From: Deinococcales bacterium
Lineage (GTDB): Bacteria > Deinococcota > Deinococci > Deinococcales > JAAFIG01
Assembly (NCBI GenBank): GCA_031414595.1
Contig: JANNVX010000098.1
Coordinates: 141,724 to 205,723 of the forward strand
Direction: 5' to 3'
DNA: 64,000 bases
How positions within the stretch are numbered: position 1 is the stretch's first letter; every line of letters begins with the position of its first letter. The notes below the pieces were generated by a model. The model was given only the letters and a program-made list of their open reading frames with translations. It was not told the DNA's origin and made no database searches. Shown one piece after another: positions 1-64,000 of the stretch. The translations under genes and the position numbers were made by a program.

Positions 1-1158
1 CAAGGGGTCGAAAGCCTAACCAACATCGTTGGTAAGCGCAAATTCAAAGCCGAGAATGGTGGTTACGGGGCTGGGCGTTTAATGCACGGGGCAGATGGTG
101 CAGATTTTACGGTGGATGTTCCTGTCGGTACAGTCTGCATAGATTTAGCGACCAATAAAATCATTGCCGATTTACTCGAGGTTGGGCAAGTTCAATTGGT
201 AGCCAAAGGCGGCTTAGGCGGTCGTGGGAATTCGGCATTCTCGAGCAGTACCCGCCGCAGTCCACGTTTTGCCGAGCTTGGCACGATGGGCGACGACCTA
301 AAAGTTAGGCTCGAGTTGCGTTTAATTGCCGATATTGGTTTGGTCGGTTATCCAAACGCGGGTAAATCGAGTTTACTCCGAGCCATGTCCAATGCTAATC
401 CCGAAGTGGCAGCCTATCCGTTTACGACCCTCAATCCGATTCTTGGAATCATCGAACGTGGTGATGACGAGTTAAACCGTCTGACCCTCGCCGATATTCC
501 GGGGATTATCGAAGGGGCGCATGAAGGTAAAGGCTTAGGTCTAGAGTTTTTGCGGCATATTTCGAGAACGCGCCTTCTGGCTTTTGTGCTTGACGGCAAC
601 GAAGCGCCGCGTGAGCATCTCGAGGCGTTGCGATTTGAATTGCAAAGTTATGACCCGACACTGCTCGAGTTACCCGCGATTATTATTGTTAATAAGCTCG
701 ATTTAATAGACGAAGAAATCAGAACCATGATTGAAGCCGAACTCTTTGATTTTGGTTTGCCTGTGCTTTGTGTCAGTGCCTTAGAGGGTATTGGTTTAGA
801 TACCCTGCGTGAAACCTTATTTCAAGTGTTGCCCGCTAAGATGCAGCGAGCCAGCCTTGTGGTGCGCGACACGATTTCTGGACCTGAACCAGTACGTGTA
901 ACAGCCGACACCGATTTTTATGCCGATGGGACACGCCTGTGGAATGTGACGGGTGGAACGTTTGGCGCTCGGATTGAACGTTTCTCGAGACATTTAGAAG
1001 ATGCTGCCGATTACTTAGAAAAACTCTTTAAGCGCGAAGGGCTAAACGCCCAGTTGCGCCGCGCAGGGGTTAAACCGGGCGATACGGTTAAAATTGGTGA
1101 ATTTGCCTTTGAGTTTTTTGAAGATGAATTCTCGGATAGCGAACACAAACAAGTTTAA
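1..1158 (+). CDS. obgE: GTPase ObgE/CgtA (5'-truncated by window edge)
   Basis: Frame is open from base 1; Gly-rich Obg domain ([10 protein letters not shown]), G1 [22 protein letters not shown]-terminal DUF1967-like tail ([15 protein letters not shown]). Confidence 0.97.
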
Positions 1159-1219
1159 GTATCTACCGCCAGTCTTGACCAGACTTTTCCATGACCAAAT
1201 CGGCGTAATTTTACGACAA

Positions 1220-2215
1220 ATGCTAAATTATGAATTGGTGATCAATGGTCTTGACCACGCTTGGCAAAAAGAATTTGGTTGTCACTGTGCGCGTTGTCAA
1301 GATAATGGGCGCACTGCCAATACCTCGGTTTCGATTTTGGGATGGCAACAACAGCAACTCGAGCAGCACATTTTGGTAGATGCGGGTGGTGGGGTCTGCG
1401 AGAGTTTAATTGCTAATCCAGATTTAGTGAAGCAACCGCGTTTAGATGCAGTGCTTCTGACCCACTGGCATCCAGACCATGTAGCAGATTTGAACCGAAT
1501 TTTGGTTGGTTTTGGGCGCTCGAGTTGGCGTGAACGGCAAATGGCAAACCGCCCGTATTTGTGGATGCGTGAAGGCAGCCACATGTGGTTAGAGCGGCAA
1601 CAACCCAATGTCTTACGGCAAGTTAGCCTGATTTCTTCGCTTGAATACTTTCCACCCGGTCAACTGCTCGAGCCAATAAGGATTTTAGGGCTGGATTTAT
1701 TGGTCACACCCGTAACCATTGCCCACTCGAGCGCCGATTTATTTCCACCTTTTGGTGAGGAGCGCCTTGCCACCTGTGCTGGTTTTATTGTTCAGACAAA
1801 TGACTTTAGAACTGCGCTGCTCTGGGATTTGGATGCCACCAATCTATGGTTGGAAAATCCTAACAGCACCCAACAAGCGGCATTTGATGCGATAGCGGGT
1901 TGTGATTTATTGCTGATTGATTGTAATACTTGGGCATACCATCAACATGCCAATGGCGAACCGACCAGTCATGTTTCGTTTTCTTTGGTACAGCGTTTTG
2001 CTAAAGCCTTAAAACCCAAGCGCACAGTCTTAATGCACATCAGTGGTCATGAGGATGCGATTGGTGATGGTTTTGGTTGGACAAACGAGATTTGGCAATT
2101 CGAGGCGACTAAGGCGTGGCAAACCGCAGGTCTAACGGGTGAAGTGATTGTGCCGCAGATTGGTCAGCGTTTTGCGCTCCAAGGTTCGGATGTCGCACTC
2201 GAGATGGTGCATTAA
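1220..2215 (+). CDS. MBL-fold metallo-hydrolase, PhnP-like phosphodiesterase
   Basis: HxHxDH motif (THWHPDH), N-terminal CxCxxC (GCHCARC), LVDAG and HISGH motifs. Start moved to ATG 1220 to avoid overlap with obgE. Confidence 0.75.
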   Translation: MLNYELVINGLDHAWQKEFGCHCARCQDNGRTANTSVSILGWQQQQLEQHILVDAGGGVCESLIANPDLVKQPRLDAVLLTHWHPDHVADLNRILVGFGRSSWRERQMANRPYLWMREGSHMWLERQQPNVLRQVSLISSLEYFPPGQLLEPIRILGLDLLVTPVTIAHSSADLFPPFGEERLATCAGFIVQTNDFRTALLWDLDATNLWLENPNSTQQAAFDAIAGCDLLLIDCNTWAYHQHANGEPTSHVSFSLVQRFAKALKPKRTVLMHISGHEDAIGDGFGWTNEIWQFEATKAWQTAGLTGEVIVPQIGQRFALQGSDVALEMVH

Positions 2216-2219
2216 GTTT

Positions 2220-2267
2220 TGTCAGGGTTTTGTGATTGACAAACCCTTGATACTCGGTTCGTAGATT
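2220..2267 (+). promoter_or_regulatory. Composite TGTCA/TGACA 11-bp-phased operator plus TAGATT -10 box upstream of ugpA
   Basis: TGTCA-N6-TGTGA-N-TGACA-N6-TGATA at 2220-2252; TAGATT at 2262-2267, 7 nt before ATG 2275. Confidence 0.6.
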
Positions 2268-2274
2268 GCCCCTT

Positions 2275-3195
2275 ATGGAAAGCACCTTAGCCAGTTCAGT
2301 CAAGCAAAAACGTGGGCATTGGAAACCACGTCCAGATTGGCTCGAGATGCTGGTTTTGCTTGTTCCTGCGGTGCTGCTTTTAACAGCCTTTGTCATTTTA
2401 CCAACCATCGAAGCCTTTGTGATGTCGTTTCAACGCGAAGGTCTATTAGGGCGCAACCGTGTTTTTGCTGGGTTTGAGAATTATCTCGAGGTCTTCTCGC
2501 GCCCCGAGAATCTACAAAGTGCTTGGCAGAGTATCTACTTTGCCCTGATTGTCGCGCCGCTCGAGATTGTGCTGGCGTTTGCAGCCGCCCTGTTAATCTC
2601 ACGTCCATTTGTTGGTGTGGCAATCTACCGCACATTATTTTTTCTGACCACAGCCGTTCCCACTGGCGTTGCCGCGATTGCTTGGAGTTGGTTCTTGAAT
2701 CCGCAAACGGGTTGGGCAAATTGGATTCTCGTTTCGCTTGGTTTAGAGCCTAAGCAGTGGTTACTTGATACCAGTACGGCGCTTCCGACCCTAGCAGTGA
2801 TTACGGCATGGGCTGGGGTTGGTTTTGCGGCAATTTTACTGACCGCAGGTTTGCAACAAATCCCCGAAGATTTATACGAAGCCTCACGGATTGATGGTGC
2901 AAATGGTATTCAGCAATTTTGGAATATTACCATTCCACTGATTTCACCTACGCTTTTTTTGGTCACACTGCTGGTTTTTTTGCGTTCCCTGACTACTTTT
3001 GGTCAGATTCATTTGCTGACCCAAGGTGGTCCAGCCGACTCAACGATGGTCTTTATTTACCGCATTTACCAAGATGCCTTTTTTAATTTTAGGCAGACGT
3101 ATGCCGCCGCCCAAAGTGTAATTTTATTTTTGGTGTTACTGATTCTGGCATTGCTGCAATTTAGGTTTATTGGGCGCAAGGTACATTATGAATAA
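2275..3195 (+). CDS. ugpA: Carbohydrate/glycerol-3-phosphate ABC transporter permease (UgpA-like)
   Basis: Multi-TM protein with EAA loop (LYEASRIDGA); first permease of the operon. Confidence 0.8.
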   Translation: MESTLASSVKQKRGHWKPRPDWLEMLVLLVPAVLLLTAFVILPTIEAFVMSFQREGLLGRNRVFAGFENYLEVFSRPENLQSAWQSIYFALIVAPLEIVLAFAAALLISRPFVGVAIYRTLFFLTTAVPTGVAAIAWSWFLNPQTGWANWILVSLGLEPKQWLLDTSTALPTLAVITAWAGVGFAAILLTAGLQQIPEDLYEASRIDGANGIQQFWNITIPLISPTLFLVTLLVFLRSLTTFGQIHLLTQGGPADSTMVFIYRIYQDAFFNFRQTYAAAQSVILFLVLLILALLQFRFIGRKVHYE

Positions 3196-4003
3196 AACCC
3201 TTTCTCGAGTTTTGTTTTACGTGGGCATCAGCTTTTATGCGGCGCTCTTGGTCTTACCGCTTTTAACCATGCTTTCGGTCAGTTTTCGTTCAGACGGGGA
3301 CGTTTACAACCCCAGTTTTTTCCCACCCAACCCAACTTTAGAGCCGTACCAGATTGCCCTCGAGAAATTCCCTGTGCTGCGTTTTTTAGGCAATAGTTTT
3401 TTGGTCTCGAGCCTTGTGACCCTTGGGGTGATGCTGATTTCAAGTTGTACAGGCTACGCACTGGCACGGATTTCTTCGCCAGTCAGTAATTTTATTTTTG
3501 CAGTGGTGATTGGTTTACTGCTCGTGCCGGGCGAAGTCACCTTTTTACCGCTCTACATCATGATTAACCGCCTTGGTTGGATAGATTCTTACCTTGCTCT
3601 GACTTTGCCATTTATTGCCAGTCCGATTGGAATTTTTTTGATGCGCCAATTTTTTAAGAGCCTACCCCAAGAACTTTTTGATGCCGCTCGGATGGATGGG
3701 GCTGGACACCTAAGGATGCTCTGGCACATTGCCATGCCGTTAGCAACTCCCGCCCTTGGCGCACTGGCTGCTTTAACCTTTCTTGGCACTTGGAACATGT
3801 ACTTATACCCACTTGTGGTCACAAATTCCGAGGAATTACGCACGGCTCAGATTGCCTTACGTTTTATTAGCGCCGACGAAGCAGTGCGCTATAACATTGT
3901 GGCTGCCGCCGCCGTGATTATTTTACTACCCACGTTAATCGCTTTCTTATTTGCTCAACGCGCCTTTGTTCGCGGTATTGCGATGGGCAGCTTAAAAGGG
4001 TGA
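3188..4003 (+). CDS. ugpE: ABC transporter permease (UgpE-like)
   Basis: FLMRQFF...LFDAARMDGA EAA motif; overlaps the ugpA stop. Confidence 0.8.
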   Translation: MNKTLSRVLFYVGISFYAALLVLPLLTMLSVSFRSDGDVYNPSFFPPNPTLEPYQIALEKFPVLRFLGNSFLVSSLVTLGVMLISSCTGYALARISSPVSNFIFAVVIGLLLVPGEVTFLPLYIMINRLGWIDSYLALTLPFIASPIGIFLMRQFFKSLPQELFDAARMDGAGHLRMLWHIAMPLATPALGALAALTFLGTWNMYLYPLVVTNSEELRTAQIALRFISADEAVRYNIVAAAAVIILLPTLIAFLFAQRAFVRGIAMGSLKG

Positions 4004-4107
4004 GTGGCTGCTGGTCTTAGCTTTACTTCTCGAGAATAAATTTTTTTACTTGAACAACCAACAACAATTAACTTATTTCGACCATGAATGGTTTCACGGA
4101 GGAACGT

Positions 4108-5421
4108 ATGAAAAAACGGTTTTTGGCTCTTGGTTTGGCAGTGTTAAGCGCAGCAACACTGACTCTGGCACAAGGTGGACGCACCACCGTCACCTTCTGG
4201 TACGCACTTGGCGGCAGCATCGGCGAACAAATCGAACTCTTGGTCAAAAACTACAACAGTAGCCAAGACAAAGTAACCATCAAAGCCGAATTTAGCGGTA
4301 ATTACGACGATACCCTCAACAAAATGCGTGCCGCCCTACAAGCTGGTAAGGGCTACCCCAACGTGGTACAGGTCTACGACATTGGCACACGCTTTATGGT
4401 GGATTCTGGGGCAGTTGTGGCACTCGAGGACATGGCAAAAAAAGAAAACTTTGACATCTCTAAACTGGTTTCACAACCACGCAATTACTACACCGTAGAC
4501 GGCAAAATGTACAGCTTGCCGTTTAACTCGAGTAACCCACTTCTTTACTTTAATGCCAGCGTCCTCAACAGCAGCAATATCGAACAACGCCCGTTTTATA
4601 ACCTCGCGCAACTCGAGGACACGATTAAGCGCTTAACAGTTAAAGACGCAAGCGGTAAAACCAGCCGTTACGGCATTACTTGGCATGCCGATTCTTGGTT
4701 TGTTGAACAATTTGGCTACAACAGTGGTCAAGCCTACTGTAACAACGAAAACGGACGCAAAGCCCGCGCCACCGAAACCACCTTCAACAACCCAGCCGCC
4801 GTTGCCTTCTTAGAGATGATGGGACGTTTGGTGTCTGGTGGATTTGCTGCCCCAGTCGGACGTGACGGCACTGCCAGCTTAAACACTTTTGTCAACGGAC
4901 AAGCCGCTATTTACGTTTCCTCTACCGCCAATTTGTTTGGTGCAACCCGGGCTGTTGGTGGAAAATTCCCAATCCGTACATCTTTTTACCCGTTCCTCAA
5001 AGAACGCAATGGTGTCGCTATTGGCGGCGCAAGCCTCTGGATGCTCAAGGGTTTTACTGAGACCGAACAAGACGGCGCATTTAGCTTCATCAAATGGATG
5101 CTTGAGCCAACCACCCAAGGACGCTGGCACTTAAACACGGGTTACTTTCCAGTCATTCAAGGTGTGACCAAACGCCCAGAAGTACAAACTGGTCATACCA
5201 AAAATCCAAATTTTATCACCGCTATTCGTCAACTCGAGACCAGCAAAGTCAACACCACCAGCGCTGGTTGCTTGATGGGACAATTCACCGAGATTCGTAC
5301 CTATGTGGTCAGTGCATGGGAAGAAGTCCTCAAAGGCAAACCCGCTAAACAAGCCTTGGATGAAGCGAAAGTTAAATCCGATGCTGCACTGCAACGCTAC
5401 AACGCGACTGTGGCTCGTTAA
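4108..5421 (+). CDS. ugpB: ABC transporter substrate-binding protein (UgpB-like)
   Basis: Signal peptide; GGAGG RBS; LPFNSSNPLLYFN, GGASLW and WHLNTGYFP motifs typical of UgpB-like binding proteins. Confidence 0.85.
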   Translation: MKKRFLALGLAVLSAATLTLAQGGRTTVTFWYALGGSIGEQIELLVKNYNSSQDKVTIKAEFSGNYDDTLNKMRAALQAGKGYPNVVQVYDIGTRFMVDSGAVVALEDMAKKENFDISKLVSQPRNYYTVDGKMYSLPFNSSNPLLYFNASVLNSSNIEQRPFYNLAQLEDTIKRLTVKDASGKTSRYGITWHADSWFVEQFGYNSGQAYCNNENGRKARATETTFNNPAAVAFLEMMGRLVSGGFAAPVGRDGTASLNTFVNGQAAIYVSSTANLFGATRAVGGKFPIRTSFYPFLKERNGVAIGGASLWMLKGFTETEQDGAFSFIKWMLEPTTQGRWHLNTGYFPVIQGVTKRPEVQTGHTKNPNFITAIRQLETSKVNTTSAGCLMGQFTEIRTYVVSAWEEVLKGKPAKQALDEAKVKSDAALQRYNATVAR

Positions 5422-5475: not shown

Positions 5476-5504
5476 ACCCCGCTCTGACTCGAGCGGGGTT
5501 CTTT
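5476..5504 (+). terminator. Rho-independent terminator of ugp operon
   Basis: ACCCCGCTC-loop-GAGCGGGGT followed by TCTTT. Confidence 0.75.
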
Positions 5505-5633: not shown

Positions 5634-5659
5634 AAAAACCCCTCGAGTGTCTCGAGGGG
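5634..5659 (-). terminator. Rho-independent terminator of phytase-like gene
   Basis: CCCCTCGAG-tgt-CTCGAGGGG stem with an A-tract on the + side (U-tract on -); the stem is built from two CTCGAG sites. Confidence 0.7.
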
Positions 5660-5691
5660 CGTAGGAGGGAGGAAGTACCCGAGTGGTTAAA

Positions 5692-6936
5692 TTAGCGTCC
5701 AACACCTGCGGCGACATTCAATGGTTTCTCGAGTTTCAACCAGATAAACTCGTTGGGGTCTTTGACATCTGCGCCGCGTCCACCTTTGGCATCAAAGTTA
5801 TTATCGTTGGCAACCAAAATTGTGCTGCTGTTTAAGACAATTACATTTTCTATTGTTACAAATGGGAAGGCAAAGACACCATTAACGGTGCTTGGCGCAA
5901 GTCTATTGGCATCTGAGATGTTCATTAAATCTGCCACCAATTCTTTTTGGGCTGCGCCATTTGCATCTTTTTTGCTCAGGTCAATTTTATAGATGCGTTT
6001 GAATTTTGCAGTTGCGCCAGAGCCGTTGTCGCGCTCAATCACCAAGTATTCGTTGTCGTTAATCACCGTGAAATCACCAATCGCATGATTGGTTTCTTCC
6101 ATTTTGTAAAAGGCGGCAATGCCAACAAATTTCTTAGTTGCCATATCAAATTCGTTAATTCGTAACATCCCAGCCGTGTCGGTCGAAACACTGCCCTCGA
6201 GCAAGCCATAAATTTTTGATTTACTTGGATTGGTGGTCATGCCTTCGTAACCCCTCGAGCCGCCAAGGTTTGCACTGCTCATTTGTCCGGGGTTTGGCGA
6301 AGCTGCGAGGACAGCAGGATTGTTTGGGCTACGCACCAAGTCCTTGCTTGGGTCTTTGCCTGTTCCGTAATCTGGGGTTGGGATTGGGGCAGACAGCACT
6401 TTGCCTGTGGTGTCTACGTTAATTAAGTACGGTCCAAATTCTTCGCCAATCCAAATTGTGCCATCCGCTGCAAGCACAAAGCTCTCTGGGTCAAAATCAA
6501 AACCAGTCAGGAAACGACTGGCGGAGTTTTCATTAACGATGATGAACGGGACTTTTTTATCTGGGTCACGCAATTGAATAAAGCTGTTGACTTTTACCGT
6601 ACCAGCGCCGCCAGTCATGGTTTTTGCAGCTAAACTGACATTGTACAAACGCAATAAGTAATCAACACTGTTGTACTTTGTACCAAAACCGTTGTCCGAA
6701 AGCATCCAATAATTGCCGTTCGCAGCAAACTGAATGCCACTAAAGCCCTGTACAGGTTGGCTGGCAAAACGTGGAGCCGCCGCTTTGCTTCCATTGGCAT
6801 TAAATTGTCCACTGGCAGCCCCTCTCGAGAAGGTATCGGCAGGCAAAACCGCAAAACCAATCAGGTCGGTTTTAAGACTTTGGGCGAGGACGGTAGCCGT
6901 GGCAAGAATGCCAAATGCAGATAAGATTTTTTTCAT
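5692..6936 (-). CDS. Secreted esterase-like activity of phytase family protein
   Basis: Signal peptide; QPVQGFSG, SDNGFG, FDPES, EEFGP, LVIERD and NDNNF motifs of the phytase-like family. Confidence 0.88.
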   Translation of the reverse strand: MKKILSAFGILATATVLAQSLKTDLIGFAVLPADTFSRGAASGQFNANGSKAAAPRFASQPVQGFSGIQFAANGNYWMLSDNGFGTKYNSVDYLLRLYNVSLAAKTMTGGAGTVKVNSFIQLRDPDKKVPFIIVNENSASRFLTGFDFDPESFVLAADGTIWIGEEFGPYLINVDTTGKVLSAPIPTPDYGTGKDPSKDLVRSPNNPAVLAASPNPGQMSSANLGGSRGYEGMTTNPSKSKIYGLLEGSVSTDTAGMLRINEFDMATKKFVGIAAFYKMEETNHAIGDFTVINDNEYLVIERDNGSGATAKFKRIYKIDLSKKDANGAAQKELVADLMNISDANRLAPSTVNGVFAFPFVTIENVIVLNSSTILVANDNNFDAKGGRGADVKDPNEFIWLKLEKPLNVAAGVGR

Positions 6937-17739: not shown

Positions 17740-17761
17740 TGAACTAAAATCCGTGAATCGT

Positions 17762-17930
17762 TAGGCGAGGCTTCTTGACCATAAACGCGCACCTGACGGG
17801 CATGGTCGCATGCCTCGCCCCTACGACAAAAATCTCGTGCTAAACCGTAGGGGTTAGGTATGCCTAACCCCTTAAAGGTCAATGGTGATCCATTCTCAAA
17901 TCGGGATGTTATTTCTGGACGATTCCTAAG
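17762..17930. mobile_element. Non-autonomous element: GTAG-type REP doublet plus one MITE-like terminal repeat
   Basis: Reverse-complement REP 17762-17824 (with insert 17772-17809), forward REP GTAGGGGTTAGGTATGCCTAACCCC 17847-17871; 17890-17930 is the reverse complement of the repeat at 46617 and 63861. Confidence 0.7.
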
Positions 17931-23903: not shown

Positions 23904-24714
23904 ATCGCTTGCGCCCCGTTAAATCAGCCTCGAGCCATGCGTTCCAGCCTGTTTGCAACATCTCGGTTTGCAAAATCGGAGCATTGCGTGGGTCTAACTC
24001 GAGCAGCAAAAAACCATTTTTGGTTAAGTAATCTGGGGCTTGTAAAACCAGTTCTCTTGCTAAGCCCAGACCATCCGCACCAGAAAAAAGGGCTTGACGG
24101 GGTTCTTGTTGTACTTCAGGCTCGAGCAGGTCAGTTTCGGGAAGATACGGCGGATTAGAAACAATCACACTAAATTGAGGAGTCAAGCCGTTTAGCAAAG
24201 AAGTTTCTAGGACATGGATATGCAGCTTTAAGCGCTTAGCATTCTCGAGTGTCAAAGTAATCGCACTAGGGTTAATGTCGGTTGCCCAAACCTCGAGACT
24301 CGGGCGTTCAGATTTTAAGGCAAGAGCAATCGCCCCAGAGCCACAACCGACATCCACCACCCGCCCTGAATCACCTAGCCGATCTAAGGTCAGTTCGACC
24401 AAGCGCTCGGTCTCTGGGCGCGGAATCAGCGCACCAGAACACACTTTTAATTCCAAACCATAAAATTCGGTACTGCCAATAATCCACTGCAACGGTTCTC
24501 GAGCCGCACGGCGATGCACCCAAGATTGATAAGTCTCGAGTTCGGCATGGCTCAGGATTCGGTTCGGTTCAAGTAATACCGCTCGAGTCGCACCCAGCGC
24601 AAAAATTAGCAGCCACTGTGCATCAAAGACTGGACTCGAGACTTGGGCTACCTCGAGTTGGATAATCGCTGCTTTTAGGGTTTCTGAGAGGGTGATAAAG
24701 TCTCCGCTTGCCAC
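23884..24714 (-). CDS. prmC: Release factor glutamine N5-methyltransferase
   Basis: REPLQWI.G, LIPRPETE, DVGCGSGAI, SNPPY motifs; start uncertain. Confidence 0.93.
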   Translation of the reverse strand: MASGDFITLSETLKAAIIQLEVAQVSSPVFDAQWLLIFALGATRAVLLEPNRILSHAELETYQSWVHRRAAREPLQWIIGSTEFYGLELKVCSGALIPRPETERLVELTLDRLGDSGRVVDVGCGSGAIALALKSERPSLEVWATDINPSAITLTLENAKRLKLHIHVLETSLLNGLTPQFSVIVSNPPYLPETDLLEPEVQQEPRQALFSGADGLGLARELVLQAPDYLTKNGFLLLELDPRNAPILQTEMLQTGWNAWLEADLTGRKRFIVAQK

Positions 24715-27718: not shown

Positions 27719-27765
27719 AAACGGCGTATTGAATTAGCACCAGACCTGTTAGAATAAAAACCGTT

Positions 27766-36417: not shown

Positions 36418-36485
36418 TTTTAGAGGTACTAATTTTTGACTCCAAAAAAAGCATAAAAACCTCGTGCTAGACGCATCAATTTTAC

Positions 36486-36530
36486 TTGACTCGAGCAGCT
36501 TTTTAGGGTATAATTCTGTGCTGAACGAAA
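36486..36530 (+). promoter_or_regulatory. sigma70 promoter of gyrB with RDRM-like (DdrO-type) operator
   Basis: TTGACT (36486)-17 bp-TATAAT (36509); 17-mer TTCTGTGCTGAACGAAA at 36514-36530. Confidence 0.7.
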
Positions 36531-36574
36531 TGCGTTAAGCCGATACACGAAAAATTCACGAAAAGAGGAAATCA

Positions 36575-38617: not shown

Positions 38618-38624
38618 GTCTAAT

Positions 38625-38657
38625 AAAAAGCGCACAGCCACAGGCTGTGCGCTTTTT
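38625..38657. terminator. Bidirectional rho-independent terminator
   Basis: AAAAAGCGCACAGCC-aca-GGCTGTGCGCTTTTT between convergent gyrB and terC-like genes. Confidence 0.88.
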
Positions 38658-38669
38658 CATGGCTCGAGC

Positions 38670-39431
38670 CTAAGCGGGTTTAGCATTGTCCTCAACAATC
38701 GGTTGGTGCAATTCGACTGGCTTAGCTTTGTTACGGGTACTGGCGCGGATGTTCAGGAATTCAACCATCACCGAAAAGCCCATCGCAAAGTAGACATAAC
38801 CTTTGGGGATTTTGACTTCAAAGGCTTCGGCAATTAAGGTAAAACCAATTAAAAGTAAGAACGACAACGCCAGAATCTTGACACTTGGGTGCTTATTGAC
38901 AAAACCAAAAATCCCAGCCGAAGCAAAGAGCATAATCCCCACCGAAACCAGTACCGCAATCACCATCACTGGAACAATCGTGGTCATGCCAACCGCCGTA
39001 ATTACACTGTCAATGCTAAACACCAAATCCAGAATCAGCACTTGCCCAATCACTGCCGCAAAAGTCGGAGCGACTCGGCTCGAGACTTCGCCATGTTCAC
39101 CCTCGAGTTTGTCATGGATTTCTTTGGTGGCTTTGTAGATTAAGAAAATGCCGCCAGCCAGTAAAATCAGGTCTTTACCAGAAATACCTTGACCAAAAAC
39201 AGTGAATAAATCAGCTTTTAATTGCAGAATTAAAGAAATCGAAAATAAAAACAAAATTCGCATTCCACCAGCTACCAATAAACCTGTTTGTCTGGCTTTA
39301 GCTTGCTGCTCGAGTGGCAATTTGCCTGCCAGAATACTAATAAAAATAACGTTGTCCACCCCTAGAACAATCTCGAGGGCAGTGAGGGTTAAAAGGGCAG
39401 TCCATGCGGCGGGGTCTTGAATCCATTCCAT
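38670..39431 (-). CDS. TerC family membrane protein
   Basis: LEIVLGVDN, DLVFSIDSVITAVGM and IPKGYVYFAMGFS motifs. Confidence 0.92.
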   Translation of the reverse strand: MEWIQDPAAWTALLTLTALEIVLGVDNVIFISILAGKLPLEQQAKARQTGLLVAGGMRILFLFSISLILQLKADLFTVFGQGISGKDLILLAGGIFLIYKATKEIHDKLEGEHGEVSSRVAPTFAAVIGQVLILDLVFSIDSVITAVGMTTIVPVMVIAVLVSVGIMLFASAGIFGFVNKHPSVKILALSFLLLIGFTLIAEAFEVKIPKGYVYFAMGFSVMVEFLNIRASTRNKAKPVELHQPIVEDNAKPA

Positions 39432-39516
39432 AAGTTAAGTATACACTGGGAGTTTGCGCCGAAAGCCATGGGGGCTAAATCACAATTGGCATCGTAAAGA
39501 ATGAGATAATTTACCT

Positions 39517-40338
39517 ATGCAAATCAGTGTCATCACTCCAACACATAACCGAATGGCACTGCTCGAGAAGTTGCTGAATTCACTCGAGCAGCAAACATAT
39601 ACCGATTTTGAAGTGGTGATTGCGGTGGATGGCAGCACCGACGGCACACTGACCTTACTTGAAGTGATCAAGCGCCGTGCCAAATTAAAACTCGAGGTGT
39701 TGGTACTGCCCCAAGGCGGTCAGGCTCGAGCCAGAAATGCCGCCATCAGAGCCGCCAATGGCAAAATTTTACTCTTTGCCGATGATGACCTGACTTTTGC
39801 ACCAGATGTACTGGCGCGTCATGCAGCTTTTCATCAGGTCTTCAAGCAATCTATGGCGATTGGGGCGGTGCAGTATCCAAATGGGAAAATAGATTTTCCA
39901 AATAACCCGAGTTGGATCAATTTTACTGGCATGAATACCAGTTTGCCAAAAAATGTGGCGCTCGAGCAGCATAGTTTTGATGAGGGTTTATCTGGGTATG
40001 GTGGTGAGGATTTAGAATTTGCGCTTCGGCTCGAGAAATCTGGGCTTAAAATCAGGCGTTTGGCAGACACCCTTGCCTTTCATGCGGGTGAACAAATTCG
40101 CAACCCAAAAAAGGCATACTCGGCGGGTTATCAGGCGGTGAAAATCGCTCAGAAGTACGGCGACACGGTTGCTATGCAGCTTGGTGTTCATCCGAGTTTA
40201 CTAGCTGCCAAACAGCTTTTACTGAATCCAATTGGTGATGTTCTCTTAAAGTCCGTATCCGATTATGCCTTTGAACGAGCTTACTTAAATGGCGCACGCG
40301 AGGCTTGGAAAGAAATCCATAATCAAAAATCAAGTTAA
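39517..40338 (+). CDS. Glycosyltransferase family 2
   Basis: SVITPTHNR, DGSTDGT, ARN, FADDD and YGGEDLE motifs. Confidence 0.88.
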   Translation: MQISVITPTHNRMALLEKLLNSLEQQTYTDFEVVIAVDGSTDGTLTLLEVIKRRAKLKLEVLVLPQGGQARARNAAIRAANGKILLFADDDLTFAPDVLARHAAFHQVFKQSMAIGAVQYPNGKIDFPNNPSWINFTGMNTSLPKNVALEQHSFDEGLSGYGGEDLEFALRLEKSGLKIRRLADTLAFHAGEQIRNPKKAYSAGYQAVKIAQKYGDTVAMQLGVHPSLLAAKQLLLNPIGDVLLKSVSDYAFERAYLNGAREAWKEIHNQKSS

Positions 40339-41373: not shown

Positions 41374-41422
41374 GGCGAAAGTCGAAAGGAAAAGACCTTT
41401 TAACCCTCAAAGCTCATAGCTC

Positions 41423-52191: not shown

Positions 52192-53550
52192 ATGCAAGCC
52201 CAAATTCCGTTTGTCACCACTGGTTCGTACCCAATCCGTGCCGGCAATACTGTCCAGCTTTTAATAGACGGCGAACCCGCTTTTTTGCGTGTCTGCCAAG
52301 CCATCGAAACAGCCCAGCACCGTGTTTGGGCAACCATTACTTTTATGTGGGCAGATTTTAGGATGCCAGATGGACGCGGTACAGCCTTCGAGGTACTAGA
52401 CCGAGCAGCCAAACGCGGTGTGGATGTGCGTTTACTCTTTTGGCGACCCGACGAAGCAACTGCCCATCATCGCCGCAATGCCTTTTGGGGGGCAGAAGAA
52501 CACTTTGCTTTACTCGAGCAATTCAACCTTGGGATTCGTTGGGATTGCGCTCAAGCAGGATTTTGTCAGCATCAAAAAACTTGGCTAATAGATGCTGGTA
52601 CTGACCATCCGATTGCTTTTCTGGGTGGGCTAAACCTCAATCCAAATTCTGTGGTTGCCCCCAGACACTACGGACAAGGACAGAATCATGACCTCTACAT
52701 TGAACTGATTGGCGCGGCAGTCGCCGATGTACAACACAATTTTGTGCAACGCTGGAATGAAGCCAGCGAACGCCACTTTGAGCATGGCTATTGGGGTGAG
52801 GGCGGAAAACAAAATCTCGAGTTTCCAAGCCGATTGCCCAAGAAAAACGGCACAGCCTTGGTGCAGATTCAACGCACCATTCATGCAGGTCGGTACAACA
52901 ATGGTCACGCTCCTGTTGCTGGGCAAGTATTTGATATTAAGATAGGTGAACAAACTATTTTCGAGCAGTATTGCACCGCGATTCAAGCCGCCAAACAGAG
53001 TATTTATCTTGAAAACCAGTGTCTCGAGATTCCCGAAATTATAGAAGCCGTGCATGATGCCCTCAAACGTGGTGTTGAAGTTGTTGCGCTGCTGCCAATC
53101 ACACCAGACTTATCGTCTCATGCGTTTTTGGAAGCTCGAGCAGGGCTTGGGGCTTACCCTAATTTTACACTGGCTGGCATGGCTGGCATGGGAACAGATG
53201 GATACCGTAAACCCGTTTGGGTGCATTCCAAACTGATGCTGATAGATGACAAATGGGCAACCATTGGCTCGGCAAACTTGCACCGATGGTCTATGTTTGG
53301 CAATGCCGAATTAAATGCTGTAATTTTATCAAATGAAACGGTTAAAGCCTTTCGGGTGGCTCTGCTCGAGGAACATCTGGGACTGGATACTTCGGATTTA
53401 GATGGTGTGACTGCATTGCAGGTATTCAAAAAGATTGCCCACGCCAACCAAGAAAAATTCTCAGAAGGCAATCAGGCGTGGCAAGGTTTAGTGGTTGCCC
53501 TTGATGTCTCGAGTTACGGGGTAAGGCATCCCAAGGGATGGGAGATTTAA
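52192..53550 (+). CDS. Phospholipase D superfamily protein (cardiolipin synthase-like, no TM anchor)
   Basis: Two HxKxxxxD motifs (HQKTWLID, HSKLMLID) and GSANL. Confidence 0.85.
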   Translation: MQAQIPFVTTGSYPIRAGNTVQLLIDGEPAFLRVCQAIETAQHRVWATITFMWADFRMPDGRGTAFEVLDRAAKRGVDVRLLFWRPDEATAHHRRNAFWGAEEHFALLEQFNLGIRWDCAQAGFCQHQKTWLIDAGTDHPIAFLGGLNLNPNSVVAPRHYGQGQNHDLYIELIGAAVADVQHNFVQRWNEASERHFEHGYWGEGGKQNLEFPSRLPKKNGTALVQIQRTIHAGRYNNGHAPVAGQVFDIKIGEQTIFEQYCTAIQAAKQSIYLENQCLEIPEIIEAVHDALKRGVEVVALLPITPDLSSHAFLEARAGLGAYPNFTLAGMAGMGTDGYRKPVWVHSKLMLIDDKWATIGSANLHRWSMFGNAELNAVILSNETVKAFRVALLEEHLGLDTSDLDGVTALQVFKKIAHANQEKFSEGNQAWQGLVVALDVSSYGVRHPKGWEI

Positions 53551-54727: not shown

Positions 54728-57544
54728 TTAGACCGAAAAAACCAATTGCCATTGCTCGAGCAAAAGTGCTTGACCAGTTTCGGGTATGGTTAATTTTTCT
54801 CGTGCCGAGGTTCGAGTTTCCTCGGGGGTTTTTGGATGGTCAATAATGGTTCTAAGAATACCAGCAGCTTGCGGTAAACCTTCTTGAATACACCATTGTG
54901 CCAGTATAAAAAATGCCTCGAGTGCTTTGCTTACGGCTTCTAGGCGGATGGCTAACGGAAAAAGCTCTGAAAATGCCTGCTTTGCCAGTCTACTGTTTTG
55001 GCTGGTTACTGCGAGTTGGGCTAAGTTTGTTAAGACTGTAATTTGACCAATTTGGTCATCTATTTTGCGCCGTATTAAAAGGCTGGTCTCGAGGTGATTT
55101 TTAGCTTGGGTAAACTGTCCGAGTTTGGTGGCTAAGTACCCAAGGTTCGAGTGCATCACGGCAATTGGGCGTTGATGCCCGATTGCTATAAAAATCTCGA
55201 GACACTGAACATAATGCTGGTAGGCGGCTTGGTTATTATTTTGCAATTCGAGGATATTAGCCATGTTATTTAGCACTGCGCCTAAGCCCGATAAATTACT
55301 GGTTTTTCGATGGATTTTTCGAGCCTGATTGTAATACTCGAGGGCTTGTTCGTAGTGCTGTTCGCGTCTGGCAATTGCTCCAAGCAGGTTAGCACATTCG
55401 GCTTCTATACCTAAATTCAAACCGGATTTAGCACGATATAGTAATGCTTTGGTGTCGCCATAACGGGCTTGTTCAAAACCAATATACGCCATGTTCAAAT
55501 AGGCTCGACTGGTCTCGAGTGGTAAATTTAGAAGCTCGAGTTGTGTGGCTGCCAATTCTAAGAACTCGAGGGCTGCCGTAAAGTCGTTTGTCATGCGTTT
55601 GAACAGACCTTTCCAGAAGTTCGTTTGGGCTTCAAGTTTAGTTCCTCGAGTTGCGGTGTAGACATTGAGGTTTTGGAGGGCTTGGTGGTATAAACCGCGA
55701 ACTTCCCAATAATCGGTGTGCAGTTCCATAATTTGCTCGAGTGTGTTGTGGTCGTACATTGCCCAGTGCAGCCATGCCAAATGGATATTGCTCTGTTCGG
55801 AATCCATGATTTCTAGGGTTGAGGCTTGGCGTTTGGCTTGATACCAGATTTGGCTTTGATTGGCATAAAAACGCGCATGACGTTGCTCTAATTCGGCTTG
55901 GCTGCCGCATTGCAAAACTGCAAATTCTCGAATCATTTCGTGGCTCGAGTAACGCCCCTTGCCGTCGCGCTGTAACAAACCCTGATTGACCAGTGCCAGT
56001 AAAGTCGGCAGTTGAGTTTGACCCACAAAGCGAATGCCTTCGAGGGTTGCGCCACCTCGAAAAACCGATAAGGCTTCGAGGGCAGTGGTTTCTCGTTTTG
56101 AGAGTTGTACCCAAGTGCTGCTTAGCACCGCGTTTAAGCTGTGGTGACGTTCTGGAATGTCTTGAACATCGGTCTCGAGCCACGTTTGGCTTTTTTCGAG
56201 TTCGATTAAAATTTGCTCTAAACTTAAAACTCGAGTCCAGCGAGCCGCTAGTTCGATGGCTAATGGTAATCCTTCTAACTGCTGCACTATTTTTGTCACC
56301 AAGCCTAAATCAAGTTCTAACTTGGAAAGCCGTTGGGCGGTTTGTACAAATAAACAAACGGCTGCATTCGAGGGTTCTAGGGATGTTGGTATGGCTAAAC
56401 CCGTTAAGTCCAGCACGGTTTCAAAACTCGAGCCTAAGCGCACACGGGTCGTCAGTAGCACGCGCAAATTTGGGGCAGCCTCGAGTAAATCATGGATTAT
56501 TTTTCTAGCACTGATTAAATGCTCAAAGTTATCAAGCAGCAACAAGATTGCTTTGTCTTGCAAAAAAGCAGCCAAAGCAGCCTCGAGCGATTCTCGAGCC
56601 GTTATACGCAAAGCCGAAACCAAGGCTTGAGGCAATTGCTGGCTGTCGGTCAGGGCTGTACCATCAATAAAAACTGCTCCATGCACAAAATTGGGTGCTA
56701 ACAAACGGACTGCCTCGAGTGCGAGGCGGGTTTTACCAATCCCGCCCATGCCAACAAGGCTGACCAAACGGTTTGTGCCGAGTAACCAAGTTTTTAATTG
56801 CATCAGTTCGCTTTCGCGCCCAAGTAAGGGCAGAAGCGAACTCGGTAAAACTGTTATGACTTTGGTGTTTGGCTCGAGCATGGCTTTGGTGGCGGCTTCT
56901 GGTGCTAAATTAAATTCGAGTTGCAGCAGGGCAGCAAAACGCTCGTAAACCAGAATAGCTTGGGGTCGTTGACCGCGTTTTAACAAACAGCGCAACAAGG
57001 CTTGGACAGCATTTTCAGAGAGTGGCTCGAGGGATAGTAACCGTTCCAGCCAAGCAATCGCCACACCATAATCGGCACTTGACTCGAGTATCATCACGCG
57101 CTGCAAAATCGCTTCACGCCACAAATGCCGTAACCGCAACCGCTCGAGTTCAAGCCAAGCACTTAAATCTGTGTTTGCGGGCGGTTCAAAACCAGCCAAA
57201 AAATCGGCTTGGTAAACTTCGAGCGCCTCGAGCCAATTTTGATTGGCACACAGCACTTCAAAACGCTGTACATCGGTAGGCAGCAGTAAACGTACCCGTT
57301 TTGCTTCGATTTCAAGACTGGCAGCCCAGATAAATTTTTTTGCCCGATGCAAAATTAAGCGCAAAGCCGAAAGCGCTGTGACATCATCGGAATCTGGGCG
57401 AAACAAACACGCCAGTTCATCTCGAGTTACCCAGTCGCCACGCATCACCAAGTACAAACACAACCAGGCAGGTCGTTCGAGCGGAATGGTCTGGAGCAAC
57501 CCAGCATTTTTGGCTTGTGGCGAGCCAAACAACAACAGTTCCAT
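54728..57544 (-). CDS. AfsR/SARP-like regulator: wHTH + BTAD + NB-ARC/STAND ATPase + TPR
   Basis: LLLFGSP, TRDELA.LF, LPTDVQRF, LEPLSE (BTAD); LLGRESEL, GMGGIGKTRLA, LLLLDNFEH, GLPLAIELAA; C-terminal TPRs. Confidence 0.9.
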   Translation of the reverse strand: MELLLFGSPQAKNAGLLQTIPLERPAWLCLYLVMRGDWVTRDELACLFRPDSDDVTALSALRLILHRAKKFIWAASLEIEAKRVRLLLPTDVQRFEVLCANQNWLEALEVYQADFLAGFEPPANTDLSAWLELERLRLRHLWREAILQRVMILESSADYGVAIAWLERLLSLEPLSENAVQALLRCLLKRGQRPQAILVYERFAALLQLEFNLAPEAATKAMLEPNTKVITVLPSSLLPLLGRESELMQLKTWLLGTNRLVSLVGMGGIGKTRLALEAVRLLAPNFVHGAVFIDGTALTDSQQLPQALVSALRITARESLEAALAAFLQDKAILLLLDNFEHLISARKIIHDLLEAAPNLRVLLTTRVRLGSSFETVLDLTGLAIPTSLEPSNAAVCLFVQTAQRLSKLELDLGLVTKIVQQLEGLPLAIELAARWTRVLSLEQILIELEKSQTWLETDVQDIPERHHSLNAVLSSTWVQLSKRETTALEALSVFRGGATLEGIRFVGQTQLPTLLALVNQGLLQRDGKGRYSSHEMIREFAVLQCGSQAELEQRHARFYANQSQIWYQAKRQASTLEIMDSEQSNIHLAWLHWAMYDHNTLEQIMELHTDYWEVRGLYHQALQNLNVYTATRGTKLEAQTNFWKGLFKRMTNDFTAALEFLELAATQLELLNLPLETSRAYLNMAYIGFEQARYGDTKALLYRAKSGLNLGIEAECANLLGAIARREQHYEQALEYYNQARKIHRKTSNLSGLGAVLNNMANILELQNNNQAAYQHYVQCLEIFIAIGHQRPIAVMHSNLGYLATKLGQFTQAKNHLETSLLIRRKIDDQIGQITVLTNLAQLAVTSQNSRLAKQAFSELFPLAIRLEAVSKALEAFFILAQWCIQEGLPQAAGILRTIIDHPKTPEETRTSAREKLTIPETGQALLLEQWQLVFSV

Positions 57545-57560
57545 AAAAAATTCTACTCGA

Positions 57561-57606
57561 GAAACGCCCATGAAACGCGGCTTTGACAAACTGTATTTTG
57601 TCAAAG
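57561..57606 (+). promoter_or_regulatory. 11-bp-phased GAAACGC direct repeats plus inverted repeat over the RBS region
   Basis: GAAACGC at 57561 and 57572; CTTTGACAAA-N6-TTTGTCAAAG at 57581-57606, ending at the GGAG RBS. Confidence 0.6.
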
Positions 57607-59316: not shown

Positions 59317-59318
59317 TT

Positions 59319-60708: not shown

Positions 60709-60717
60709 CGCTCGAGT

Positions 60718-60795
60718 CTACTGCTTTTGAGAGAGGGTGCATTGCCTACTGCTCGAGAGGGTGCATCCGCCTACTGCTCGAGAGGGTGCATCCGC
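60718..60795. repeat. 25 bp tandem repeat (2 perfect + 1 degenerate copy)
   Basis: CTACTGCTCGAGAGGGTGCATCCGC at 60746 and 60771; degenerate copy at 60718. Confidence 0.9.
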
Positions 60796-62196: not shown

Positions 62197-62595
62197 TTAA
62201 TTTTGACTGCGTGATTTACGAATTCGGCAACGCTCGAGAATATACTGCACACTGCTCGAGGCGATTTGGTTATTTTGGGCGTGGGCTTGGAGTTTCTGCC
62301 AGCCCTGCCACTCGAGACTACGGGCAGTGGCTCGGCTTGTGCCTAGAAAAGTGCTGACTTCGCGCAGGCTGTGGCGGTGTCCGTCCACCAACCCACTGCG
62401 TAACCGCAAAACCATTTGCTCGTTATTGCCAAGCAGTGCAAAGGTCTGTTCGATTTCGCCTTGGTTTGGGATCATACTTCTATTTTCCTCGTTTTCCTGA
62501 GTTTTACTTGGGTCTGGTTTACGGTTTGCCATAAGAACTGACATCATCATGACATGGCTGTGCATTTTTTGGGGTGTGACGGCGCACACAGCCAC
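62197..62595 (-). CDS. Stand-alone sigma-70 region 4-like HTH protein (start uncertain; possibly 62475)
   Basis: L...EQMVLRLRSGLVDG...SLREVS..LG.SR...R.LE....KL matches the region 4 pattern. Confidence 0.7.
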   Translation of the reverse strand: MAVCAVTPQKMHSHVMMMSVLMANRKPDPSKTQENEENRSMIPNQGEIEQTFALLGNNEQMVLRLRSGLVDGHRHSLREVSTFLGTSRATARSLEWQGWQKLQAHAQNNQIASSSVQYILERCRIRKSRSQN

Positions 62596-62647
62596 CTCTG
62601 TAAAGGGCGAGTTCAGTCCCCATTCTTTGGTTGAGGCTGTTTGTGGA

Positions 62648-63802
62648 TTATTTTGTTAATGCCGTCCAGAGCGCCGCAACTCCAGCCCCTCGAGTAAATT
62701 TTGCCCCACAGTCTTGCAGCGCTTCCTCGAGTAAACCAGCAAAACTCAGGGCATCGTAGCGGTCAAAATATCCCATAAAGGAAATGCGTACAATTTGGTC
62801 TTTAATTGCGTCTTGTCCAGTCTGCGCCCGAGCGCCACGTTGTAAGAGCGCTGCCCAAAGCTCACGTCCACTGATTGGTGCGGGCGGAATAAGCGTCACA
62901 CAAGCTGGACTCGGAAGACTGGCATAACTGCGACAACCAAGAGCAACGGCGCAAGCCAGCAGTGCATCGTTCAGGGCTTTTTTATTTTCCCACCACGCCT
63001 CGAGACTGGTTTCTTCTATTTCGGTGGCAATTGGCTCGAGGGCGGCGTTTAAGCCGACAATTAAGTTGATGGCTGGGGTAAAGGCAGTTTCACCGCTTTG
63101 TTGCACCTTAATTTCACGGCGTAAATCAAAGTAATAGCCAGTGCTTTGACTTGAATTTAGAATCTCTAAGGCTCGAGGGGCTAAAAAAGCAAAAGCCAGC
63201 CCCGGAGGTGCGCCAGTGGCTTTTTGTGAACCGCTAATCACCGCGTCTATTTCCCATTCCTCGAGTCTGAGTTCGGCGACACCAAGGCTAGTAATGGCAT
63301 CCACTAGAAGTAAGATATTAGGGTTGATTGCCTTAGCAGCTTTGGCAATCTGCTCGAGGTCATGTAGTACACCCGTGCTGGTTTCTGAATGGGTGATTAA
63401 AAGCGCTTTGGCGTTTGGGTTGGCTTTCAGTAGTGTTTCTACTGCACCAATAGAAATACTTGTTCCCCACTCCAGCCGTGTTTCTTTTACGTGGTAGCCA
63501 AGGGCTTTTGCCATATCTGCCCAACGCTCGCCAAATTTGCCAGCGCTGATGCTGACCACGCGTTTTTCTCGAGCCACCAGACTGGTCAGAACGGCTTCAA
63601 ATGCACCCGTGCCACTACTGGTCAGAATAAGCGGTTCGACCGCCTCGGAGACACCCGCCACGATTCGCAGCAGTTCTCGAGCGCGTTTGACAATAGTTTT
63701 TGCTTCGGGACTTCGGTGATGCAATTGACGATTTGCCAGTGCCAGTTGCACAGCAGGACTAATTTCCACAGGACCGGGCGCAATCAGACGTTGACGATAC
63801 AT
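62648..63802 (-). CDS. Class V PLP-dependent aminotransferase (serine/alanine-glyoxylate type)
   Basis: APGPV, SGTGAFE, GKFGERW, HSETSTG, VDAITS and SGSQK motifs. Confidence 0.92.
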   Translation of the reverse strand: MYRQRLIAPGPVEISPAVQLALANRQLHHRSPEAKTIVKRARELLRIVAGVSEAVEPLILTSSGTGAFEAVLTSLVAREKRVVSISAGKFGERWADMAKALGYHVKETRLEWGTSISIGAVETLLKANPNAKALLITHSETSTGVLHDLEQIAKAAKAINPNILLLVDAITSLGVAELRLEEWEIDAVISGSQKATGAPPGLAFAFLAPRALEILNSSQSTGYYFDLRREIKVQQSGETAFTPAINLIVGLNAALEPIATEIEETSLEAWWENKKALNDALLACAVALGCRSYASLPSPACVTLIPPAPISGRELWAALLQRGARAQTGQDAIKDQIVRISFMGYFDRYDALSFAGLLEEALQDCGAKFTRGAGVAALWTALTK

Positions 63803-63860
63803 AGCCTAATCTACTCGAGAACTGGCTATTTTAGCGATTAAGTTGCACAGACAACTCGAG

Positions 63861-63904
63861 CTTAGGATTTGTCCCAGAATAACTTCCCGATTTCAAGAAT
63901 AGTG
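63861..63904 (+). repeat. Terminal repeat of the MITE-like family (third copy)
   Basis: CTTAGGATTTGTCCCAGAATAACTTCCCGATTTCAAGAATAGTG aligns with 46617 onward and the reverse complement of 17890-17930. Confidence 0.75.
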
Positions 63905-64000
63905 TCATTCGGTTCTCGGTTTGGTAAAGTCATTTGAATGCAGACCTACTCACTAAAAGTCAAAAATATGATGTTACGGCTGTACCAGTCACTTAATGAA

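Follow-up and report, generated by a model that had tools for sequence, protein, structure and literature searches.

The six-base palindrome CTCGAG is iterated throughout the genome of an uncultured Deinococcales bacterium (assembly G000; 4.49 Mb in 120 contigs, 47.2% GC, 94% complete), from which we analyzed a 64,000-nt stretch on contig C98, hereafter the window. The genome holds 23,235 copies (5.18 per kb), making CTCGAG its commonest hexamer; AAAAAA, the next commonest that does not overlap it, occurs 5,616 times. The excess is 24-fold over the 972 copies expected from base composition and about 75-fold over the 310 expected from a second-order Markov model of the site-masked genome. The word accounts for 69% of all TCGA tetramers and is found on 120 of 120 contigs, at 2.3-8.6 per kb. 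We tentatively interpret CTCGAG as a genuine highly iterated palindrome (HIP), kept at about 5 per kb by a weak, genome-wide directional force that operates via a mobile recognition factor, and we place the likelihood of this combined interpretation somewhat short of even. The force acts on the DNA itself, independently of reading frame or coding status, and slows the loss of sites about three-fold at synonymous positions and about two-fold between genes.

Genes were called by a crude open reading frame (ORF) rule (at least 120 amino acids), which yielded 3,610 genes and a coding fraction of 86%, and the excess was measured against a dinucleotide shuffle, a synonymous-codon shuffle, a codon-order shuffle and the masked Markov model. 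Sites are about as dense between genes (5.41 per kb) as within them (5.14 per kb). Coding sequences hold 19,976 sites, compared with 1,948 ± 24 after synonymous-codon shuffling (ten-fold) and 907 ± 27 after codon-order shuffling (22-fold), and each reading frame is enriched 9-27-fold over the shuffles, or 9-16-fold when only the synonymous shuffle is considered. The frame that reads Leu-Glu holds 59% of coding sites; Leu-Glu dipeptides number 19,766 where 8,890 are expected (Glu-Leu, 8,742), and CTC-GAG encodes 60% of them rather than the expected 5%. Because Leu-Glu is doubled and 60% of it is written CTC-GAG, protein sequences themselves have been altered. Density along genes is flat apart from slight deviations at their ends, downward at start codons and upward just past stops, and counts in 4-kb segments are nearly Poisson (mean 20.8, standard deviation 5.6 vs a Poisson value of 4.6). 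The tRNA genes, which served as a constrained control since a search with a conserved primer motif did not find a 16S gene in the assembly, carry 7 sites in 68 genes, where about 27 would be predicted at genome density. Separately, five tRNA genes (Ser, Ser, Cys, Thr and Glu) lie within 3 kb at positions 144-2945 of contig C56, each with a CTCGAG; a mobile element may carry this cluster as a tRNA array.

These measurements bear on the possibility that the iteration is a by-product of codon usage, of amino-acid usage, of a dispersed repeat or of faulty assembly, which the nulls refute and to which we assign practically no likelihood. The prominence of the Leu-Glu frame would fit such an origin, as would the fact that CTC and GAG are favoured codons in GC-rich genomes, where a weaker excess of about two-fold over the synonymous shuffle is partly codon-driven. 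Against this stand the size of the excess over both shuffles, its presence in each frame and the equal intergenic density; the flanks are essentially random, so the word is not part of a repeat element; and it is present on all 120 contigs, in 14 other assemblies of the family and in independent contigs from public sequencing runs. Independent Logan contigs from two runs, possibly the source samples, match window positions 36000-40000 with 0 differences; runs X5 and X7, from a second study, contained only relatives, in short contigs about 90% alike. The run listing for the stretch included no RNA data set, an outcome silent on expression. The preliminary description, prepared from the letters of the window alone, had argued that codon or amino-acid bias was insufficient to explain the sites, and had named a codon effect, confinement to one frame and an assembly artefact as ways in which it might fail; the excess survives codon-preserving nulls in all frames, and an artefact is not its source.

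The window itself contains 366 CTCGAG (5.7 per kb, about one per 175 nt, with a median spacing of 140 nt). One hundred dinucleotide-preserving shuffles gave 7.2 ± 2.8 copies and never more than 18, so that none reached 366. Gene-level tests in the window used its 56 complete ORF-called genes, which hold 319 sites, compared with 30.3 ± 5.4 (largest 43) in 100 synonymous-codon shuffles. Sites lying wholly within genes number 318, divided 190/58/70 among the three frames, and 48 are intergenic (6.2 per kb, compared with 5.7 per kb in coding DNA). The features of the window that concern the word are as follows.

1-64000, no strand: the CTCGAG set, 366 copies, window-wide.
5476-5499, plus strand: second terminator-like hairpin, containing CTCGAG (5488), downstream of a UgpB-like ORF at 4084-5421.
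5638-5660, minus strand: terminator-like hairpin with a 10-pair stem built from two CTCGAG (5642 and 5651), a loop of 3 and the tail TTTTGCTGGT.
27692-28396, no strand: longest site-free interval; the neighbouring sites, at 27686 and 28397, are 711 nt apart.
36575-38617, plus strand: gyrB (GyrB family hit), a highly constrained gene with 6 CTCGAG.
56170-57235, minus strand: dense stretch, 12 sites in 1066 nt, inside a 958-amino-acid TPR-repeat ORF at 54728-57604.
60746-60795, plus strand: tandem repeat, 2 copies of a 25-nt unit with CTCGAG in each (60752 and 60777).

The hairpin at 5638-5660 is followed by a run of T and lies downstream of a minus-strand ORF at 5692-6936; the TPR-type assignment of ORF 54728-57604 comes from family hits, and a further CTCGAG stands at 60711, near the tandem repeat. 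In a codon alignment of gyrB from 14 genomes, part of the sites are shared across the family and part are lineage-specific gains, among them the site at window position 37842, where the closest relatives have CGCGAG. Recounting reproduced exactly the preliminary tallies of 21 sites in positions 1-5000 and 12 in 56170-57235, and bore out the earlier remarks that sites form a terminator stem (5639-5659), recur in the tandem repeat at 60746 and fall in all frames as well as between genes.

The motif is exactly 6 bp long. Its flanks, described earlier as variable, are near random save for a mild lack of C on the 5' side and of G on the 3' side; the C..G extension is avoided in G000 (CCTCGAGG occurs 178 times vs 708 expected). 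This flank preference depends on lineage: G000 avoids C..G, genome G190 prefers C..G, and genome G247 prefers S..S. Variants one base away from the word are most numerous in G000 at the outer positions, which keep the TCGA core (5,263, vs 3,181 at position 2 or 5 and 3,548 at position 3 or 4), and among transversion variants those at outer positions reach or exceed expectation where inner ones fall below it. The available text on HIPs describes the same bias of one-base deviants toward outer positions, with the inner core kept (PMC4390886).

Gaps between sites in G000 have a median of 138 nt and a mean of 191 nt and are distributed nearly exponentially. The pair correlation starts at 0.30 (6-12 nt), rises to 0.47 (12-18 nt) and then to 0.8-0.86 (up to 60 nt), and settles at 1.0-1.05 thereafter. 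No two sites are 6 nt apart, a spacing that would generate GAGCTC, itself present in only 6 copies in the genome. A gap of 7, in which a single base separates two sites (CTCGAGNCTCGAG), is in excess, with 101 cases in unrelated contexts vs 17-49 at neighbouring spacings. At one locus with such pairs (contig C15, position 86012) three 7-nt units stand in tandem, a hint of small slippage duplications.

Sites are retained beyond what the surrounding DNA would predict. We aligned the window with five relatives of the same genus; like the other relatives compared, these are metagenome bins, 57-100% complete. Retention exceeded that of matched control hexamers in five of five.

Relative at 94% identity: sites 0.90, control hexamers 0.74.
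Relative at 90% identity: sites 0.86, control hexamers 0.61.
Relative at 86% identity: sites 0.70, control hexamers 0.43.
Relative at 79% identity: sites 0.79, control hexamers 0.27.
Relative at 74% identity: sites 0.58, control hexamers 0.19.

A longer alignment of 170 kb between G000 and its relative G005 gave the corresponding rates. Third codon positions have diverged 3.3-fold more slowly within sites (70/1637, or 0.043) than elsewhere (0.141), and intergenic DNA about two-fold more slowly (24/672, or 0.036, vs 0.067). Retention is 751 of 818 sites in coding DNA and 98 of 112 in intergenic DNA, compared with 0.71 and 0.76 for controls. Private sites number 81 in G000 and 83 in G005, and the differences between these two genomes in the window, polarised with an outgroup, comprise 19 gains, 23 losses, 5 ambiguous cases and 10 without an outgroup. 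Gain and loss are thus in balance, and in the comparison with orthologs, which the preliminary description had proposed, sites are conserved above background. Neighbouring sites lie closer to those that differ between G000 and G005 than to conserved ones (median 68 vs 83 nt, p = 0.008).

In a simple mutation-selection-drift picture, three quantities would each imply that a site enjoys a scaled directional advantage of roughly 2-4: the ratio of sites to each transition neighbour (about 19), that of sites to the neutral expectation (about 40 or more), and the two- to three-fold slowing of loss. The divergence and retention data are equally compatible with selection and with biased conversion. 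Concerted conversion of several bases at once was considered and rejected: site hexamers with at least three differences seemed in excess in the window (9/344, compared with 1.4% of controls), but not in the 170-kb alignment (14/930, or 1.5%, compared with 1.9%).

The poorest 4-kb segments of the genome are low-GC islands, of four kinds.

Low-GC island: surface-polysaccharide gene cluster.
Low-GC island: RHS-repeat/SIR2/GASH genes.
Low-GC island: a transposase and a NOV_C-domain gene.
Low-GC island: genes without family hits.

Such site-poor, low-GC islands are typical of acquired DNA. Even so, a few sites are present in them, against a prediction of about 0.4 per 4 kb from base composition, which fits a slow loading of DNA after its arrival.

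To place G000 among its relatives, we surveyed 301 genomes of the phylum (one, G259, is flagged as unpublished and stands in the table; no claim is based on it). All 15 genomes sampled from family f1, representing five genera, carry 4.3-6.8 sites per kb. Outside this family richness is graded and patchy: genus g7 has 0.01-0.27 per kb in 100 genomes, genus g9 about 0.6-1.6 per kb in 31 genomes, genera g12-g14 up to 3.5 per kb, and family f2 0.3-2.7 per kb, and two outliers in family f3 reach 3.6 (G190) and 7.0 per kb (G247). Weaker versions exist in cultured relatives, for example 3.05 per kb in a Calidithermus record. The likeness to cyanobacterial HIP1 drawn in the preliminary description has thus held up: the palindrome is iterated beyond codon bias, is lineage-wide and is conserved above background.

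The sharpest contrast lies within one genus. G191, a congener of G247 with the same GC, has 0.3 sites per kb. Samples from the family f3 genomes gave the following values.

G247, 70-kb sample, 50% GC: 6.7 per kb, in all frames; intergenic 8.0 per kb.
G191, 120-kb sample, 50.5% GC: 0.29 per kb, observed/expected 1.2.
G190, 120-kb sample, 66% GC: 3.7 per kb, with C before and G after preferred.

In the G247 sample, Leu-Glu occurs 244 times vs 109 expected (2.2-fold), and a 39-kb subset holds 190 coding sites vs 21 in synonymous shuffles (nine-fold). The G247/G191 contrast speaks for the favoured interpretation in that the factor can be gained or lost.

The word is also iterated beyond the phylum. 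We sampled reference genomes containing a three-site pattern (at least 120 matches) and made whole-genome counts for 23 of them; records titled 'Deinococcales bacterium' among the matches listed have 4.6-6.4 per kb, and these titles agree with the phylum, Deinococcota, that the preliminary description had guessed. Those with a specific excess elsewhere include two haloarchaea.

Natronoglomus mannanivorans: 19,287 CTCGAG in 5.5 Mb, 3.5 per kb; GAGCTC 1,481.
Halobiforma nitratireducens: 13,155 CTCGAG in 3.7 Mb, 3.6 per kb.
G313: 3.8 per kb.
G317: 3.4 per kb.
G312, an Acidobacteriota bin: 2.6 per kb.

In samples of 53-80 kb from these five genomes, coding sites are 1.9-2.9 times the synonymous shuffle and intergenic densities (2.0-4.3 per kb) match coding densities, so that the effect is real yet much weaker than in family f1 (ten-fold) or G247 (nine-fold). 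Eight other GC-rich genomes of the 23 have about as many GAGCTC as CTCGAG and hence no specific excess. In the two haloarchaea (G309 and G310), GAGCTC is about 13 times rarer than CTCGAG, coding and intergenic densities are equal, and coding sites are about twice the synonymous shuffle. Phages were considered as well: the dense viral hits among the matches listed (at least 120) are GC-rich contigs with GAGCTC about equal to CTCGAG, or tandem repeats, and no clear phage of family f1 was found among the viral matches to the three-site pattern.

Because the palindrome is exact, its flanks are lineage-specific, and it is switched on or off within one genus and occurs in Archaea, we favour a mobile dimeric factor of fixed core specificity; these same four features point away from base composition, codon usage and a common uptake machinery. 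The source of the force would be a sequence-specific dimeric protein that moves horizontally, for which proteins of the restriction-modification type are the obvious class. Its likeliest candidate would be a CTCGAG methyltransferase or reader, orphan or derived from a restriction-modification system and not necessarily orthologous between lineages. Either marked sites would be favoured, or, as proposals for cyanobacterial HIP1 have it, mismatch repair or recombination would be biased toward the intact site. A bolder version, in which a mobile module that works in Bacteria and Archaea switches on CTCGAG accumulation and converts a genome within the divergence of one genus (7.0 vs 0.3 per kb at equal GC), strikes us as rather doubtful. 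If true, 'palindrome drive' would be a general process, rewriting about 3% of a genome together with its proteome, and cyanobacterial HIP1 only one instance of it; subtraction of G191 from G247 could then reveal the responsible gene.

Two rival sources of the force were also weighed. In the first, a competence receptor favours fragments carrying CTCGAG, and alleles with the word spread by recombination without benefit to the cell. Sites in all frames and between genes, altered proteins, site-poor islands that look acquired and balanced turnover form a signature that matches descriptions of Neisseria and Haemophilus uptake sequences; some site pairs form terminators, and natural competence is known from cultured members of the phylum. 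Like CTCGAG, the DNA uptake sequences (DUS) of Neisseriaceae and the uptake signal sequences (USS) of Pasteurellaceae are iterated in all frames, affect peptides, possibly involve drive and form some terminator pairs. They are, however, 9-12 nt long, non-palindromic, present at about 1 per kb and backed by demonstrated uptake bias, whereas CTCGAG falls well short of known uptake sequences in length, at 6 bp, and is an exact palindrome whose flanks are close to random. Its iteration in haloarchaea and other phyla is moreover explained more easily by a mobile enzyme of fixed specificity than by the convergence of unrelated uptake machineries. An uptake receptor was not found, though no search was aimed at one. 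We consider an uptake-driven origin unlikely.

In the second, selection maintains binding sites for an abundant dimeric DNA-binding protein, such as one that organises or compacts the nucleoid or serves as a repair scaffold, with a tiny benefit per site. A palindrome suits a dimer, the density is almost uniform, neighbouring sites exclude each other at short range (0.30 at 6-12 nt), and variable sites lie nearer their neighbours, as if nearby sites were redundant. Yet the exclusion is equally explained by the avoidance of hairpins between self-complementary words, a candidate protein was not found, and the on/off pattern within one genus together with the occurrence in Archaea would require that this protein be mobile too. 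We judge this explanation improbable.

Several results weigh against the mobile recognition factor, most of them from our search for a cognate enzyme. Neither an XhoI-family endonuclease (PF04555) nor Vsr (PF03852) was found in G000. We searched G000 and a panel of 16 genomes (7 rich in CTCGAG, 4 intermediate and 5 poor; bins 74-100% complete) with four methylase families (PF02384, PF01555, PF00145 and PF07669, leaving out the D12 class), and clustered all hits together. No ortholog group at 35-40% identity or more was common to the CTCGAG-rich genomes, although specificity cannot be read from sequence and enzymes that are not orthologous can share one word. The largest group, type I HsdM, covers 5 of the 17 genomes. 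A C5 methylase on contig C22 is the sole G000 enzyme with a clear ortholog in the same genus (75% in G006; 59% in G247), and the clustering placed no ortholog of it in G008-G011 or G190. The panel search found no C5 methylase in G010, which has 4.3 sites per kb, and in G190, with 3.6 per kb, only one, together with two large Eco57I-type proteins. In the searches run, then, neither a writer nor a reader of CTCGAG was identified. Further, CTTGAG and CTCAAG, the neighbours expected from deamination, stand at 1.45 times expectation rather than being depleted; CpG transitions outnumber non-CpG ones to much the same degree within sites as elsewhere, which does not support a hypermutable CpG in the word as a sign of 5-methylcytosine (m5C); and the pair correlation of G000 sites, flat past 60 nt, has no period other than the 3-nt codon period, unlike what is claimed for HIP1. 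Periodic spacing, which the preliminary description had thought worth seeking, is accordingly absent from G000, and its proposal of an orphan XhoI-like methyltransferase coupled to biased repair is not supported, with no XhoI nuclease, no Vsr, no shared methylase ortholog and no depletion of the T variants.

As far as sequence clustering can tell, the HIP1 situation, with one conserved cognate enzyme, is excluded within these four families. The hits as a whole would be consistent with methylation: at least one methylase turned up in each of the 11 panel genomes classed as rich or intermediate, and none in three of the five poor ones (G191, G186 and G199). CTCGAG is methylated by non-orthologous enzymes as N6-methyladenine, N4-methylcytosine or m5C, and orphan forms exist, according to the available portions of three reports (10.1101/2019.12.21.884833, PMC8112702, PMC4752239). 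Three intermediate, Thermaceae-type genomes, G079, G175 and G192 (loci L088, L092 and L091) have in common a PF01555 methylase of about 310 amino acids, 70-71% identical, that was not found in the poor genome G016 and is a candidate for CTCGAG specificity. Two TaqI_C-domain methylases have as their nearest solved relatives CamA-like and M.BseCI-like proteins and type I M subunits, which are uninformative on specificity.

The same observations decide on very-short-patch repair acting alone, in which a C5 methylase and a Vsr-type nickase would restore C:G from T:G at the word, as Dcm and Vsr do at CCWGG in E. coli. Single-base differences at sites are C<>T at the central CpG in 16 of 32 cases with G005 and 14 of 32 with G001, and G000 has five C5 methylases, both of which speak for such repair. 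However, outside sites, too, CpG mutates about 1.4 times more readily than other C, the mechanism would act at one position only, and the missing Vsr and the overabundant CTTGAG and CTCAAG contradict it. The Dcm/Vsr pair resembles the present case as methylase-linked repair that shifts the abundance of its own word, but in E. coli it yields a far smaller excess than that seen here. This explanation is largely refuted, and we regard it as very improbable.

G000 is otherwise well provided with restriction-modification genes. It encodes nucleases of the NgoPII, ScaI, NgoBV and TdeIII families, each adjoined by a methylase; a Dam-class methylase next to a MutH/Sau3AI-like protein; five HsdM/HsdS pairs; one type III pair; and several methylases with unrecognised neighbours. 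Methylases lacking any recognisable partner nuclease lie at C4:28798-30789, C44:14182-15339, C100:35487-36584, C98:74542-75456, C98:77204-78199, C22:27856-29055 and C89:271-1965. Of its 64 palindromic hexamers, 34 occur at less than 0.1 of expectation (GGGCCC with 0 copies, TGCGCA with 2, GAGCTC with 6); GGCC has 152 copies (0.011 of expectation) and GATC stands at 0.14. This avoidance of short palindromes is in keeping with the many restriction-modification genes. In G247, 27 of the 64 are nearly absent, compared with 3 of 64 in G191; since G247 both avoids and iterates and G191 does neither, iteration and heavy avoidance coincide in that pair. As an aside, at positions 70000-83000 of contig C98, upstream of the window (locus L231), NuoF-like and NuoG-like genes flank two PF01555 methylases, their unannotated neighbours and a gene with a PIN domain, an arrangement suggestive of a nuo operon into which defence genes have inserted.

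HIP1 (GCGATCGC) and the alternate HIPs of cyanobacteria are the closest phenomenon described (PMC4390886, PMC5861425, PMC13756078, 10.1101/2024.09.10.611283). As presented in the accessible parts of these sources, HIP1 shares with CTCGAG a short GC-containing palindromic form, a tens-fold over-representation in genes and spacers, conservation, rarity in DNA that looks acquired, lineage specificity and an unsolved mechanism. The differences are that CTCGAG is 6 rather than 8 bp long, belongs to another phylum and reaches about 5 rather than about 1 per kb. In those same parts, a word-specific methyltransferase is present wherever a HIP word is frequent (PMC4390886), and HIP1 spacing is claimed to be quasi-periodic (PMC13756078). 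In G000, by comparison, the searches tied no cognate orphan methyltransferase to the word, the sites have no periodicity beyond codons, and the effect on the proteome is very large, with Leu-Glu doubled. As for HIP1 itself, CGATCG occurs 3 times in G000.

Orphan CTCGAG methylases resemble what the favoured interpretation would call for, being nuclease-free, of several unrelated classes and spread over bacteria, archaea and viruses. In the available text of the reports concerned, a Nocardia orphan enzyme is described whose motif clusters at the replication origin (PMC4752239), giant viruses carry orphan CTCGAG methyltransferases (10.1101/2019.12.21.884833), and Halorubrum has m5C at CTCGAG, with 560 sites in the strain (PMC8112702). 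That text reports no genome-wide iteration; in G000 the word is iterated and no such enzyme was identified. XhoI and PaeR7I recognise the same word, but an active system would be expected to deplete it, as in genus g7, whereas in G000 it is hyper-abundant and no PF04555 protein was found. A targeted literature search, motif tables in supplements apart, found no report of genome-wide CTCGAG iteration.

Three decades of work on HIP1, almost all of it in one phylum, have yielded no mechanism; CTCGAG provides a second, denser case, and the on/off pair within one genus, together with the haloarchaeal enrichment, makes selection, methylation-linked repair and drive testable against one another. In practical terms, the word distorts codon and dipeptide statistics, its density distinguishes native from acquired DNA, and XhoI-type enzymes would either shred such DNA or be fully blocked.

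The window also holds several features that do not concern CTCGAG. About 165 nt at 17742-17906 recur, 87-95% identical, on several different contigs in two relatives and resemble a small multi-copy mobile element. The ORF at 24675-26219 (minus strand, 514 amino acids) has many DNA copies, 66-70% identical, on other contigs of the relatives (match from 24700), and represents a multi-copy gene family, possibly of transposases. A 28-nt segment at 41395-41422 recurs on at least 7 contigs of relative G007 at 96-100% identity, and positions 38625-38657, just past gyrB, match their own reverse complement and so form an inverted repeat. Finally, the ORF at 52192-53550 belongs to the phospholipase D family, with cardiolipin synthases as its best family hits and a weak hit to DrmC of DISARM, under that model's cut-off.

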